A stretch of DNA of 64,000 bases, taken from Spirochaetia bacterium. Lineage in GTDB: Bacteria; Spirochaetota; UBA4802; UBA5550. This document shows, piece by piece, positions 29,680-32,710 of the stretch; within the stretch, counting starts at the first letter, position 1, and the number at the start of each line of letters is the position of its first letter. A model generated the notes under the pieces. The model had not been told where the DNA came from, ran no database searches, and saw only the letters and a program-made list of their open reading frames with translations. The translations under genes and the position numbers were made by a program. The stretch spans positions 4,623 to 68,622 of the forward strand of contig VFJS01000042.1 in the NCBI GenBank assembly GCA_009885955.1. Reading direction: 5' to 3'.

Positions 29680-30027
29680 TCAGCCCTTCTTTATCATCGG
29701 CCCCAGGTCCCTGCCGCCGAATATATGGACATGGAGATGAAAGACCTCCTGGTGGGCGTCCCTGCCGTTATTGATGAGGATCCTGTATCCGCTTTCGTCA
29801 ACATCTTTGATCTTCACCACCTCTTTTACTGCAAGGAAGATATCCGACATGATTGCGCTGTTTCCGCTGTTGATATCATTTAAATCAACAATGTGTTCCC
29901 TGGGTATAACCAGTGTATGGGCCGGTGTCAGGGGGTTGATGTCGTCAAAGGCAAGAACCTTTTCATTTTCATAGACTTTTTTTGCCGGTATCTGCCCGGA
30001 AGCAATTTTACAAAAAATACAATCCAT
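29680..30027 (-). CDS. HIT-family (histidine triad) hydrolase
   Basis: MDCIFCKI N-terminus and HLHVHI triad. Start at 30027 with a GGAGACA SD; the track's longer ORF upstream has no coding support. Confidence 0.85.
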   Translation of the reverse strand: MDCIFCKIASGQIPAKKVYENEKVLAFDDINPLTPAHTLVIPREHIVDLNDINSGNSAIMSDIFLAVKEVVKIKDVDESGYRILINNGRDAHQEVFHLHVHIFGGRDLGPMIKKG

Positions 30028-30043
30028 AGATGTCTCCAGAAAT
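29916..30043. repeat. left copy of a 128-bp direct repeat (HIT start codon, SD and first 37 codons)
   Basis: Matches 32583..32710 by eye with a single mismatch (ctgcccgg vs ctgtccgg). Confidence 0.85.
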
Positions 30044-30290
30044 TGCACGCCCTCACCCCCGACTCGTCGAGCGCTTTTCGAACATCGAACAGCAGGATGC
30101 GGTGAATGCCGAAACGCGACAGGACGTCGCAAAAAGCTTTGGCCTGTCCGCGCTCGACACTAAAGCATCCTGCTTGTCGGCAGTGCGCTTTTTCGACCTC
30201 CTGTCGGCGCACTGCACTAAAGCATCCTGCTTGTCGCCTCTCCCAGAATGGGGCGAGGGGAGTCTTTGGCATGTTAATAAAATTTCATTC
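30044..30290. mobile_element. GC-rich MITE-like structured repeat element, copy 1
   Basis: Termini GCCCTCACCCCC ... GGGGCGAGGGG. Internal 22-bp direct repeat CACTAAAGCATCCTGCTTGTCG occurs twice, plus inverted partners. Related sequences at 38514..38694 and 41270..41631. Confidence 0.55.
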
Positions 30291-30496
30291 ATTCACTCAG
30301 AAAATAAAGGATACTATTTCAATCAGAATTAATCAAGCATTTTTTGTTTTAGGAAAAAAAGGAAAAGTAAAATATTTTATGGCCATTTACTGAACTGAAA
30401 GAAATTTGGCTTGACACATGAGAATATTTTGATATATTGTTGACGATGTGTGATACTTCCGTATTGCAAAATATAAAATTAATTTGGAGGAATTGA

Positions 30497-30929
30497 ATGA
30501 AAATATTGTATCAATTAATGAAAAAATTCTCTCTCTCTCTCTCTCATAATCATTTTTTCCAGTTTTAATATCATCGGTTGTGCTACAATAACTAGAGGAA
30601 GTGAAGAAGCATTAGCGATAAATTCAAAACCTACAGGTGCAATGGTTCTAATTAAAAATACTGAAGATGGGACTGAAATATTTAAAGGATTAACTCCAAC
30701 CGCTGTAAAACTTAAAAGAAAAGGTAATTATTCAGTAAGAATTGAAAAAGAAGGTTATGAAACATTGTTAATTAATGTAACAAATCAAAAATCAGATACA
30801 GGAGGGGTAGCAACTGCTGGAAAATGTCTTGCTGGAGGCTGTATAGGATTTGGAATTGACCATAGTACAGGTGCAGGATTAAATCTAATACCCAATCCAA
30901 TAAATGCTGAATTAGTTATTACAAAGTGA
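30497..30929 (+). CDS. phase-variable PEGA-domain lipoprotein gene, currently frame-shifted (OFF) within a (TC)9 tract in its signal peptide
   Basis: GGAGG is 6 nt before ATG 30497. A 23-codon ORF stops at 30566. The downstream frame encodes lipobox IIGC then a PEGA-like domain; one extra TC unit fuses the two frames. The track lists only the internal ORF 30642..30929. Confidence 0.65.
30528..30545. repeat. (TC)9 dinucleotide simple-sequence repeat
   Basis: Counted directly as tctctctctctctctctc. Confidence 0.95.
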
Positions 30930-30937
30930 CCAACGCA

Positions 30938-30975
30938 TCGGCTAAAGCTGAAGGCTTCTGTTTCGGCTTTAGCCG
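30938..30975 (+). terminator. stem-loop (CGGCTAAAGC / GCTTTAGCCG, 10-bp stem) 9 nt after the lipoprotein stop; weak U-tract
   Basis: Inverted repeat read from the sequence; no clear U-tract follows. Confidence 0.4.
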
Positions 30976-31325
30976 AATAAATGTCATCCTCAACCTGAAA
31001 ATTGTCATCTACGGGTTCTTTTCCTTGCTCCTCAATATATTATAGGATGATCTCATCAGTTATATTTCATGATGATACTACAAAATATCCCCGAGTCCAC
31101 AGATGACGACCCCAAAATTGATGACTCAGTTCAATGTATTCTGTTAATAATTTGATGGCGTAACAAACGCCTGACCCTATAAAAAAAGAGCATTCTGATA
31201 AATAACATGCGGCAGCTGACAGCAGCCGGATGAGAAGGTTTTGGCTGCCGCGTTTTCTGATGATTATTAACTTGACATTTCCATTTATTTATGAGAAATT
31301 GATGAAATGGATCTATGGAGGAGTT

Positions 31326-31529
31326 ATGATAATTGAAAATCGAAATAACGAAATAATAATTCGCATTCCGGCGAATATTGACATAAATATATCTCAGGAT
31401 TTTATTGAGTATGTGCATGTAAAGAGTATTCTTTCCGGGAGCAGCGCCTCACAGGAAGATATTGAAAAAATTTCTGATGAAATCAATAAATTATGGTGGG
31501 AAAAAAATAAAACCAGGTTTATTAAATGA
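31326..31529 (+). CDS. putative antitoxin (small protein upstream of and overlapping a PIN toxin gene)
   Basis: 67 aa. GGAGGAG SD. ATGA overlap with the PIN gene. No family recognised. Confidence 0.45.
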   Translation: MIIENRNNEIIIRIPANIDINISQDFIEYVHVKSILSGSSASQEDIEKISDEINKLWWEKNKTRFIK

Positions 31530-31966
31530 GGGTTGTCATTGACACCAATATACTCATAAGCGCTTTAATCAATCCAGCAGGCAAAGAAGCTGATATACTT
31601 TTAAATCCTCTTTACGAATATGAAAAATATAGCTGCTATTTTCTATTTGTTGAAATATTAAAACATAAAGATAAACTTCTTAAGTTTTCGAGTTATAAAG
31701 AAGTGGATTTTCTCGAGCTATATTATTGTATCTTAAGAAAATTGAAATTTATCAACGAAGAGCACATCCCTTTCCGTATCTGGGAGCAAGCTTTATTCAT
31801 TACAAAAGATATAGATGAGAATGATACTCCGTTTGTAGCTCTAACTATTTACTTGGATGGTATTCTCTGGTCGGGTGATAAAAAAATTATGAAATGTCTT
31901 GAAAAAAAGGATTTTAATAAGTATATAACGACAAAAGATTTGATCGTTTTATTGGAAAAAAGGTAA
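31526..31966 (+). CDS. PIN-domain (VapC-like) toxin
   Basis: MRVVIDTNILISAL N-terminus with acidic residues at DENDTPFVAL and LWSGDKK. Confidence 0.7.
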   Translation: MRVVIDTNILISALINPAGKEADILLNPLYEYEKYSCYFLFVEILKHKDKLLKFSSYKEVDFLELYYCILRKLKFINEEHIPFRIWEQALFITKDIDENDTPFVALTIYLDGILWSGDKKIMKCLEKKDFNKYITTKDLIVLLEKR

Positions 31967-31973
31967 ATATTTT

Positions 31974-32201
31974 ATGAAAATACAATATTTTCCTGAAACA
32001 GATTCCCTTGGGATCATGTTTTCCGAGAAGCCTGGCTCCGACTCCTATGAAATAGCGGAAGGAATCACGGTTGATATTGACGATAATAGCAGGCCAGTTG
32101 GTATAGAGTTTGAATCCGCGAAAGGCAGGATCGATCTTTCTGATATCATTCTAAAAGTGCCAACGACACATATCAGTTATGATTCCGTAAAAATAAAATA
32201 A
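31974..32201 (+). CDS. DUF2283-family small protein
   Basis: MKIQYFPETDSLGIMFSE ... VGIEFESAKGRIDLSD matches the DUF2283 pattern. Confidence 0.6.
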   Translation: MKIQYFPETDSLGIMFSEKPGSDSYEIAEGITVDIDDNSRPVGIEFESAKGRIDLSDIILKVPTTHISYDSVKIK

Positions 32202-32477
32202 ATCCTCCTTTTTTTGCTTAACCATAGGAATATTATTAGTAAGTAATAAGACTCATGTTAACGCGGCAGTCGGGCGAGCAAGTTTTGGCTGCCGCATACT
32301 CTATTCTCCACCGGTTTTCAACATATCAATTCAACATGATGGACCCATTGTTATCTTGACATTTCCATTTATTTTTATGAAATTGATGGTATGGATGTTG
32401 AAAAATGTATTTACCCGGCCAATAAAAACATGGATAATTCCCTTATAAAAATTTGTTATTGAGCATGGAAGGTCAAA

Positions 32478-32606
32478 ATGAGCGGATTATTAGAATTGAA
32501 ATTGAATGAAAATGAAAAAACTGCATTAAAGGAATTAAAAAATAGGCTTAATGATGAAATTTCCGGTCTCCAGATTATTCTCTATGGGCCGGTGTCAGGG
32601 GGTTGA
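32478..32606 (+). pseudogene. 5' fragment of a nucleotidyltransferase (MNT-type antitoxin-like) gene, truncated at the island's right boundary
   Basis: [37 protein letters not shown] resembles an MNT N-terminus and ends 24 nt into the repeated HIT segment. Confidence 0.4.
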
Positions 32607-32694
32607 TGTCGTCAAAGGCAAGAACCTTTTCATTTTCATAGACTTTTTTTGCCGGTATCTGTCCGGAAGCAATTTTACAAAAAATACAATCCAT
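32575..32694 (-). pseudogene. duplicated 5' fragment of the HIT gene (37 codons + RE + stop)
   Basis: Lies within the right copy of the 128-bp direct repeat, including the SD. Confidence 0.8.
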
Positions 32695-32710
32695 AGATGT
32701 CTCCAGAAAT
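32583..32710. repeat. right copy of the 128-bp direct repeat
   Basis: Near-identical to 29916..30043. Confidence 0.85.

Follow-up and report, generated by a model that had tools for sequence, protein, structure and literature searches.

A foreign islet between two copies of a HIT gene start in an uncultured Spirochaetia bacterium: a possible integrase-independent insertion by ordinary recombination

How did a 2.5-kb islet come to lie between two near-identical copies of the start of a single gene, and why is that gene still intact? The locus that raises this question lies in the 64-kb window (the whole stretch of 64,000 nucleotides that we analysed) from an uncultured Spirochaetia bacterium, in which a 128-bp segment occurs twice in direct orientation, at 29916..30043 and at 32583..32710. 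The two copies agree at 127 of 128 positions, as the first-pass annotation had reported, the one mismatch being C at 29995 in the left copy and T at 32662 in the right; the sequence of the right copy is also found in Logan contig L081. No other repeat of 100 nt or more exists in the window, and a 61-nt probe from the repeat found these two copies only (none expected by chance). Each copy comprises 16 nt of upstream sequence with a GGAGA motif, an ATG, 37 codons and 1 nt, so the earlier statement that both hold the HIT ribosome-binding site, start codon and 37 codons is correct. The left copy runs on into an intact HIT (histidine triad) gene (29680..30027, minus strand; 115 aa; Pfam HIT, E=1.5e-28; HLHVH motif). 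The right copy gives rise to a stub (32575..32694, minus strand) of 39 codons, the 37 HIT codons followed by Arg-Glu and a stop (MDCIF...PAHRE); translation confirmed both products. At the mismatch the intact gene reads GGG and the stub GGA, a synonymous change that leaves the N-termini identical at 37/37 residues, and the GGA of the stub is also present in a HIT relative of 74% identity. Both edges of the repeat are abrupt, and homology does not fade out past either of them.

Next to the stub is a host gene encoding a Ser/Thr kinase with a USP domain (32815..34245, minus strand; Pkinase E=2.1e-31, Usp E=3.4e-12), whose product has 100% identity over 476 aa to the protein P0001, and the gene order HIT-CNNM-CNNM-M23 is retained in a relative (L087). 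We found no close relatives in the searched databases, where the next-best kinase is 63% and the next-best HIT protein 74% identical. Could the duplication stem from recombination between HIT paralogues, as had been offered as an alternative? There is no local substrate for such an event because the 64-kb window holds no other HIT-like sequence. The former upstream DNA of the HIT gene now lies 2.7 kb away, beyond antisense-oriented genes, and the gene is still intact because the left copy has its own ribosome-binding site and ATG. The annotation had held that the HIT promoter must lie within the insert; the gene is indeed severed from its former upstream DNA, but the "must" was only deduced, and we saw no sigma-70-like site on the HIT strand between 30044 and 31071, although a search of this ~1 kb of upstream sequence is a weak test.

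Is the arrangement a property of the chromosome or of its assembly? Repeats of this kind make short-read assemblies break or mis-thread, and the source assembly is metagenome-derived. Conceivably, the chromosome reads kinase-repeat-HIT, and a 2,667-bp unit, consisting of the repeat plus the 2,539-bp islet, is a circle of its own or comes from a different strain and was threaded by the assembler through the shared 128 bp; an empty site and a circle would yield the same four junctions. The Logan contigs, which were built at k=31, all stop at the repeat, breaking exactly at its inner edges (L081 at 32583, L084-86 at 29945 and L082 at 32612), and L081 continues unbroken past the right copy's outer edge. 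The first-pass annotation had itself raised an assembly artefact as a concern, and the check came out in two parts: both inner junctions (rest of HIT/repeat and ORF/repeat) are supported independently by Logan contigs and recur in at least five sequencing runs, but the outer-left junction, 30043/30044, is present in the NCBI assembly alone and was not reproduced independently. Against mis-threading, the independent Logan assemblies from those runs match the locus sequence at 100% identity, no run yielded an unbroken kinase-HIT contig, the intact HIT protein is found on the NCBI contig alone, and the islet has no replication gene. The single mismatch also disfavors an artefact because a collapsed repeat would be identical, whereas here the two alleles have different outer flanks, only 48 nt away. 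We therefore consider an artefact or population mixture, including threading by the assembler, quite unlikely.

The DNA between the repeats is compositionally foreign, low-GC and probably horizontally acquired, and its composition supports the earlier view of it as foreign: GC is ~33% in the islet relative to 43% in the window, 41% in the repeat and 48% in the rest of the HIT gene. It is not a single element. The islet is a decayed mosaic of unrelated modules, some with a GC content of 60%, some of 27-38% and some intermediate. The 60% module is a structured non-coding segment directly beside the left copy (30044..30260), which carries two 22-nt direct repeats (30158-30179 and 30215-30236) and a partial inverted copy near 30098, and which has a DNA fold z of -4.1. 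This segment had been labeled MITE-like, a label for which we found no support: the window contains a single copy, viral and metagenome contigs contain none, and the 10-nt inverted match between its termini falls short of significance (54/500 shuffles). Further copies of island segments had been suggested as worth seeking; no other copy of any of the non-coding modules turned up, either in viral and metagenome contigs scanned for exact matches or in phages and plasmids searched by blastn.

The sole mobility-gene trace in the islet is a pseudogene remnant of an IS200/IS605 (Y1 HUH) tnpA gene at 31025..31162 on the minus strand, recognized by blastn to annotated tnpA genes, by translation and by tblastn. 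It comprises only the C-terminal third, with two in-frame stops (Y1_Tnp E=1.9e-8, profile positions 76-121 of 121), and it is located mid-islet rather than at an end. The first-pass annotation had overlooked it. Between the stop codon of a lipoprotein gene and the 3' end of the remnant is a hairpin (30938..30976) with an 11-bp stem, TCGGCTAAAGC / GCTTTAGCCGA, which is a candidate IS end or terminator. An incomplete transposase and a single adjacent hairpin identify a remnant, not an active IS200/IS605 member.

Did a transposase, then, create the flanking repeats as a target-site duplication? Direct repeats around a segment with a transposase fragment would invite that reading. However, transposon target duplications are short, 2-14 bp, and 128 bp is an order of magnitude past those known, so the earlier judgment that the repeat is too long for one was sound. 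Additionally, IS200/IS605 elements make no target duplication, the remnant is internal and truncated, and there are no terminal inverted repeats at the islet ends, where 477 of 500 shuffles align at least as well. Might the two copies instead be the template and variable repeats of a diversity-generating retroelement? On the coding strand, the mismatch (A in the stub versus G in the gene) does have the direction expected of such an element, but a lone mismatch is not a mutagenesis pattern, and neither the islet ORFs nor the called genes at 18.4-38.5 kb include a reverse-transcriptase family. Both ideas are effectively refuted by these tests.

The right half of the islet carries plus-strand genes. 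A block with a hairpin and promoter-like sequence (TTGACA...) at 31207..31312 precedes a toxin-antitoxin operon, and a second copy of the block, 78-86% identical to the first and with a 40-nt spacer, is located at 32262..32396. The operon consists of an antitoxin gene (31302..31529; 67-75 aa depending on the start chosen), whose stop overlaps the start of the next gene (ATGA), and a PIN_2-family toxin gene (31526..31966; 146 aa; Pfam PIN_2 E=7.8e-25; TIGR00305), and a DUF2283 gene follows (31974..32201; 75 aa; Pfam DUF2283 E=1.9e-13). The antitoxin, PIN and DUF2283 assignments of the annotation are borne out. Judged from its sequence, the antitoxin-PIN pair qualifies as a putative type II toxin-antitoxin system with a VapC-like PIN toxin, and at 16 of 27 related metagenomic loci the PIN gene is immediately preceded by an antitoxin homolog. 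The DUF2283 gene, which is present at none of those 27 loci, is outside the conserved pair. Relatives of the PIN gene are at most 55% identical, and none has an islet-like neighborhood.

Behind the second promoter block is an orphan ORF (32478..32606, plus strand; 42 codons, with a ribosome-binding site) that extends 24 nt into the right repeat copy, such that its final 8 codons are inside the repeat. It is a probable 5' fragment of a gene since lost, although the ORF has no homologs against which to judge a truncation: it recovered itself alone among 5.8 billion and 1.84 billion sequences, and had no match in Pfam, NCBIfam, PADLOC, PHROGs or PDB, results that must be read in light of its being a short fragment. 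It had been described as a nucleotidyltransferase gene cut off at the repeat. The ORF does run into the repeat, but no search returned a homolog that would justify the name, and an MNT-type nucleotidyltransferase is not supported, as there was no NTP_transf_2/Polbeta-type match (a weak negative for a short fragment).

Did an integrase deliver the islet? The first-pass annotation had proposed a degraded site-specific integrative element that targeted the HIT 5' end and brought a replacement gene start. On this model, a tyrosine-integrase element would have supplied the ribosome-binding site, ATG and 37 codons and would since have shed its integrase along with most of its cargo. The locus does resemble insertions of the dusA-IE and SXT-prfC type, in which an insert enters the 5' end of a housekeeping gene, restores its frame, leaves the native 5' end as a stub, splits the gene from its former promoter and carries toxin-antitoxin cargo, such as mosAT in SXT (PMC2654960). 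Target-gene direct repeats, a restored frame, foreign composition and toxin-antitoxin modules, which are typical integrative-element cargo, are all found here; there is precedent for elements that swap the promoter and N-terminus of a gene (PMC8409611), and arm-type binding sites are a possible role for the iteron-like 22-nt repeats beside the left copy. However, dusA islands and SXT/prfC have int and RDF genes, lengths of 22-100 kb and short att repeats, whereas the islet is 2.5 kb long with a 128-bp repeat at 127/128 identity, and shows neither an integrase gene nor a distinct N-terminus or promoter. No recombinase or integrase family was detected in the islet ORFs (Pfam, NCBIfam, PHROGs, PADLOC) or among called genes at 18.4-38.5 kb (precomputed Pfam matches), and no int or xis/RDF gene or remnant of one was found; the place beside the native stub that int should occupy is taken by the orphan ORF, which enters the repeat. 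Known cases have a diverged replacement N-terminus (61% identity over 35 aa; PMC8409611), whereas here the N-termini do not differ at all and the GC content of the repeat resembles that of the host. The deletion that removed int would also have had to stop exactly at the repeat edge, the non-coding modules occur in no other sequence searched, and no PIN relative, at 55% identity or less, lies in islet-like surroundings. We conclude that the proposal of an element with its own gene start fares poorly and is unlikely, although, on architecture alone, an integrase element that had recently copied its replacement 5' end from this same species would fit too.

If not an integrase, what placed host sequence at both ends of the insert? 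We tentatively favor, at a little under an even chance, an integrase-independent insertion in which circular DNA carrying a 128-bp HIT fragment entered by a homologous single crossover. Circularized foreign DNA would earlier have acquired the fragment of the HIT start and would then have recombined with the chromosome through one RecA-type homologous crossover (a Campbell-type insertion), which would automatically leave the insert with a copy of the fragment on either side and thereby duplicate 128 bp of host sequence. In Escherichia coli, 56 of 60 clones carried duplications of 109-950 bp on either side of the insert, produced by a single crossover between the chromosome and re-circularized DNA with a shortened homologous segment (PMC3240628). 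The host-like 128-bp repeats are within that experimental range and, at more than ~100 bp, are long enough for RecA recombination. Those lacZ duplications with re-circularized pJA2 share with our locus ~2 kb of foreign DNA between near-identical direct host copies of ~100-plus bp, the lack of a dedicated recombinase, arbitrary repeat ends and reversal by homologous recombination (PMC3240628). The differences are that the islet is natural, is in an uncultured bacterium, and duplicates a piece with a ribosome-binding site and start codon, so that the gene survives. Several features of the locus point the same way: a host-like repeat (41% GC) beside a 33% islet; abrupt edges with no terminal inverted repeats, no tRNA (the window has no tRNA or Rfam match) and no recombinase; an ORF that follows a conserved promoter block and continues into the repeat, fitting an arbitrary break and not an element terminus; and a mosaic with a truncated IS200 tnpA. 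On the other side, the single-crossover model presupposes an earlier, unexplained event in which both ends of the HIT fragment became joined to foreign DNA. Viral, plasmid and metagenome collections yielded no circle or other donor with the 128-bp segment, we saw no empty site, and the next-best relatives are distant. The outer-left junction, present in the NCBI assembly alone, and the unexplained continuation of L081 beyond the right copy also weigh against the model.

Could the duplication have come first? A tandem duplication of the HIT start, followed by insertion or accretion and decay of foreign modules at the dispensable junction, would also leave a functional HIT gene, since the repeat holds its own ribosome-binding site and start codon, and it would explain host-like, almost identical copies; the mixed-GC mosaic, the truncated IS and the duplicated promoter blocks suggest several successive events. 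However, two or more rare and independent events would have had to strike the same place, short tandem duplications tend to disappear soon, neither inner junction has a target duplication or inverted repeats, and nothing positively sets this history apart from a single crossover. We regard it as a doubtful explanation. Homology-facilitated illegitimate recombination (HFIR) during transformation likewise needs no integrase: a stretch of homology anchors the incoming foreign DNA (~1-2 kb), and the junction on the foreign side is arbitrary. As described, however, it couples insertion to deletion and usually involves microhomology of 3-10 bp (PMC3240628), whereas at the islet host sequence is duplicated and not deleted. 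Similarly, small toxin-antitoxin islets and decayed IS200-IS605 insertions share the low GC, the antitoxin-PIN module and a Y1 transposase pseudogene, but a flanking 128-bp gene-start duplication is not among their features.

Returning to the single crossover, the repeats would allow host recombination to delete the islet precisely, restoring the kinase-HIT arrangement, and the antitoxin-PIN pair would penalize that loss; we infer the circular donor, the crossover, this reversibility and the stabilizing role of the pair together. If it is true that repeats mediate reversible loss opposed by a toxin-antitoxin pair, the locus would offer a compact model for how small islets persist; otherwise it is an ordinary accessory islet of an uncultured bacterium. 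One might go further and see a still-mobile, integrase-free and "homology-addressed" element, a 2,667-bp circle with the HIT-start copy as its portable address, entering and leaving by host RecA alone, sparing its target through the ribosome-binding site and start codon, and held in place by the antitoxin-PIN pair, but we think this very unlikely; the islet looks like an ordinary recombination-driven insertion and not a new kind of mobile element. As such, it would show cleanly, and in nature, that foreign DNA can enter a core gene region with no dedicated recombinase and still leave the gene alive, because the duplicated piece includes a ribosome-binding site and start codon. There is also a lesson for annotation, in that long direct repeats duplicating a gene end are not, by themselves, evidence for an integrase-type island.

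The remaining cargo gene encodes a PEGA lipoprotein (30497..30929, plus strand; Pfam PEGA E=1.3e-6; PHROG 6823 E=1.2e-11) and is OFF by frameshift, because a (TC)9 tract at 30528-30545 throws the ATG at 30497 out of frame. With 10 or 7 TC units (one added or two removed) the encoded precursor would have both a signal peptide and a lipobox, IIGC. This frame analysis agrees with the first-pass description of a phase-variable gene and, on sequence grounds, places it in the putative contingency class; Logan contig L082 likewise has 9 TC units.

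The segments at 29916-30043 and 32583-32710, each 128 nt long, are identical at 127 of 128 positions and constitute the only direct repeat of at least 100 nt in the 64-kb window; a 61-nt probe derived from the repeat matched these two sites only, with no matches expected from shuffles. Read on the minus strand, each copy carries a 16-nt leader with GGAGA, an ATG (at 30027 in the left copy and 32694 in the right copy) and 37 codons plus one base of a HIT gene, an organization that the first-pass annotation had described correctly. As it had also stated, the left copy leads into an intact gene, whose 115-aa product contains both the HLHVH motif and a complete HIT domain (E=1.5e-28), and the right copy ends as a stub of 39 codons (...PAH-R-E-stop). 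The sole mismatch, C29995 vs. T32662, is synonymous: the intact gene has GGG at this position and the stub has GGA, as does the HIT gene of a relative (74% identical). Both ends of the repeat are abrupt, with complete divergence from the first outside base, and there are no HIT paralogs within the window. Two further pairs of direct repeats, 43368-43447/45618-45697 (79% identity) and 54990-55057/57422-57489 (72%), are diverged, lie about 2.3 kb apart and are probably conserved motifs of neighboring paralogous genes.

Could the duplication be a product of assembly? Five runs (SRR8670875, -76, -77 and -78, and SRR9952633) yielded Logan contigs that are 100% identical to the window and end at the repeat, and the kinase gene adjoining the stub is represented at 100% identity in both the NCBI and Logan assemblies. 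One of these contigs, L081 (SRR8670878, k=31), corresponds to 38542-32583 of the window, comprising the kinase side and all of the right copy, in which the variable site is T, and it ends at exactly 32583, the inner edge of that copy. Three contigs from the CNNM/HIT side (L084, L085 and L086) end at 29945, 30 nt (k-1) inside the left copy, and L082, which comes from within the islet between the copies, ends at 32612, 30 nt inside the right copy. Several independent data sets thus show two different neighbors at the inner end of the repeat, which establishes both inner junctions as real. We found the intact HIT protein solely on the 136,891-bp NCBI contig that includes the window, and no run yielded a simple unbroken contig joining kinase and HIT.

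A mis-assembly or a mixed population, in which an empty site coexisted with a 2,667-bp circle, would generate the same four junctions, and we found no independent contigs over the outer-left junction (30043/30044) or over the entire repeat. In addition, L081 runs unbroken past the right copy's outer edge and C/T site and stops at the inner edge only, a continuity that is unexpected if the outer junction of the left copy has equal coverage; simplification of the graph or poor coverage of the 60%-GC segment may account for it. The base that differs between the copies, however, speaks against a collapsed repeat, as 48 nt separate it from the outer flank and each copy's base is tied to a different flank. 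On balance, we consider an artifact or mixture of this kind very improbable.

The DNA between the copies is a composite. Its interior (30261-32582) has 33% GC and the segment at 30044-30260 has 60%, relative to 41% for the repeat, 48% for the remainder of HIT and 43% for the window; other low-GC patches of the window contain ordinary genes and have no flanking repeats. Our analyses bore out the anatomy that the first-pass annotation had given for the islet but not its "MITE" and "nucleotidyltransferase" labels, and they revealed a transposase remnant that it had overlooked. The supposed MITE, 30044-30260, is non-coding and structured (DNA fold z=-4.1), contains a pair of 22-nt direct repeats plus a partial copy in inverted orientation, and had no Pfam or Rfam match that would make it a gene remnant or a known RNA. 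We found no other copies in the window or in viral or metagenome contigs, and the 10-nt inverted match between its ends is not significant. Beyond it is a gene for a PEGA-domain lipoprotein (30497-30929) with a (TC)9 tract at 30528-30545, in the signal-peptide region. As assembled the gene is out of frame (OFF), as the frame that begins at the ATG ends after 23 codons. Frame analysis predicts that (TC)10 or (TC)7 would restore a precursor of 144 or 141 aa, respectively, with a signal peptide and lipobox (IIGC), an architecture consistent with the phase variation proposed earlier. The independent contig L082 also has (TC)9, and length variation was not seen.

The overlooked element is an IS200/IS605 Y1 transposase pseudogene on the minus strand (~31162-31025), comprising the C-terminal third of tnpA with two in-frame stops (FWGRHLWTRGYFVVSS*NITDEIIL*YIEEQ). 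Its identity is supported by blastn matches to annotated tnpA genes, by tblastn, and by Pfam Y1_Tnp (E=1.9e-8, profile positions 76-121 of 121), and a strong hairpin (30938-30976) is located directly beyond its 3' end. This fragment is the only part of the islet with a match to phage or plasmid DNA. The N-terminal two-thirds of tnpA have been replaced by two blocks (31207-31312), one a hairpin and the other a promoter-like TTGACA block, that precede a toxin-antitoxin operon. A second set of these blocks, 78-86% identical, is found at 32262-32396 in front of an orphan ORF; the hairpin-to-promoter spacing is 0 nt in the first set and 40 nt in the second. There is no third copy in the window, and a 20-mer of the promoter block had no exact match in viral contigs. 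The paired blocks suggest modular cassettes that share one head. We considered and rejected an integron/attC-like identity for the hairpin blocks, as R''/R' core motifs were absent by eye, there was no Rfam match and only two copies exist.

The operon consists, as previously annotated, of genes for an antitoxin, a PIN_2 toxin (E=7.8e-25) and a DUF2283 protein (E=1.9e-13), with the antitoxin stop and the PIN start overlapping (ATGA). Relatives of the PIN protein have at most 55% identity, and at 27 metagenomic loci that encode them an antitoxin homolog abuts the PIN gene in 16, DUF2283 is beside it in none, and no neighborhood resembles the islet. The DUF2283 gene (31974-32201) may be the orphan half of another toxin-antitoxin pair. 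The 42-codon orphan ORF (32478-32606, plus strand) has an RBS, and its final eight codons are within the right repeat copy. It had no family or structure match in Pfam, NCBIfam, PADLOC, PHROGs or PDB. A word-indexed search of 5.8 billion clustered proteins returned only itself, and phmmer, run exhaustively against 1.84 billion representatives, returned itself and one repetitive protein, so that there is neither family nor homolog to sustain its designation as a nucleotidyltransferase. Based on the promoter block and RBS, it may reasonably be viewed as the 5' portion of a gene that has been lost. A 20-nt AT-rich stretch of the ORF (32499-32518) is 85% complementary to 32627-32646 (and 29960-29979), at a distance of 108 nt from the complementary stretch in the repeat; this is probably chance, as there are 13 similar pairs within 9 kb.

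What process led to foreign DNA being bounded by two copies of a gene start? At 128 bp the repeat is too long to be a transposon target-site duplication, as the first-pass annotation had recognized, and to our knowledge IS200/IS605 elements make no target duplication at all. The first-pass annotation instead proposed a site-specific integrative element, now degraded. That the insert is foreign is upheld, and there is precedent in the dusA islands and SXT in prfC, integrase elements that enter the 5' end of a gene and replace its promoter and N-terminus (PMC8409611). Those elements, however, carry int and RDF genes, are 22-100 kb in length and supply a diverged N-terminus (61% over 35 residues) (PMC8409611), whereas the islet bears no trace of a recombinase, its flanking repeats match the host in composition and the N-termini that they encode do not differ. 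Searches for integrases, resolvases and excisionases were negative for the islet and for the genes called at 18.4-38.5 kb, and no tRNA or Rfam family was found. Terminal inverted repeats are absent from the islet ends (477/500 shuffles scored at least equally), and the end at which int would be expected has instead an ORF that enters the repeat. With no positive evidence and several contrary features, we regard a degraded integrase element as unlikely.

A closer parallel is found in E. coli, in which re-circularized DNA with a shortened homologous segment recombined with the chromosome by a single crossover, and the foreign insert was flanked by duplications of 109-950 bp in 56/60 clones; genuine homology-facilitated illegitimate recombination, in contrast, gave an insertion plus a deletion (PMC3240628). 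The islet has the anatomy of the single-crossover outcome, with ~2.5 kb of foreign DNA between 128-bp near-identical copies of host sequence, and its arbitrary, abrupt repeat edges also fit. Because of this correspondence we tentatively favor a Campbell-type homologous insertion, which would have placed the islet at the HIT start without an integrase. Alternatively, the HIT start may first have undergone a harmless tandem duplication, with later insertion or accretion of DNA at the junction, but this seems to us doubtful. We view the locus as a further case, from an uncultured bacterium, of an already known type of event; it provides a tidy natural example and a caution that duplicated gene ends alone are not the sign of an integrase island.

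The HIT gene has stayed intact because its RBS and ATG are part of the duplicated piece. It now has upstream of it 2.7 kb of DNA in which all genes are oppositely oriented, and its promoter, which the first-pass annotation stated "must" be inside the insert, may lie there. No sigma-70-like sites were detected on the HIT strand at 30044-31071 in a scan that was overall at chance (13 found vs. 12.5 expected). The direct repeats would permit a precise RecA-mediated deletion that brings kinase and HIT back together, a loss against which the antitoxin-PIN pair would presumably select, as has been reported for other islands (PMC2654960).

Close relatives are absent from the collections searched. A scan of genome contigs for the kinase gave a best identity of 63% (Nitrospirae or Thermodesulfovibrio-like MAGs), and neither HIT nor CNNM genes were near kinase relatives at any of 80 loci. 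In a large protein collection the organism itself was followed by relatives at 63% (kinase) and 74% (HIT). The best relative with usable context (contig L087 of GCA_024276015.1) has the same HIT-CNNM-CNNM-M23 peptidase order as the window, but its genes upstream of HIT are unrelated to those of the window. As synteny is retained on the CNNM side only, the 5' side of HIT is a synteny breakpoint. The relative's HIT gene has a promoter of textbook form (TTGACT-17-TATAAT, within 7930-8003 of L087) ~45 nt upstream of its ATG. We attempted to assign the native promoter to one repeat copy by homology to this region and rejected the approach, as the similarity of the copies' upstream regions to it was not significant (165/500 and 311/500 shuffles scored at least as high). 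The kinase and USP gene (32815-34245) has 53-58% GC in the 43%-GC window, and after the 63% tier its homologs, at ~50% identity, are from Burkholderiales and Azospirillum MAGs; the kinase side may itself have been rearranged or acquired.
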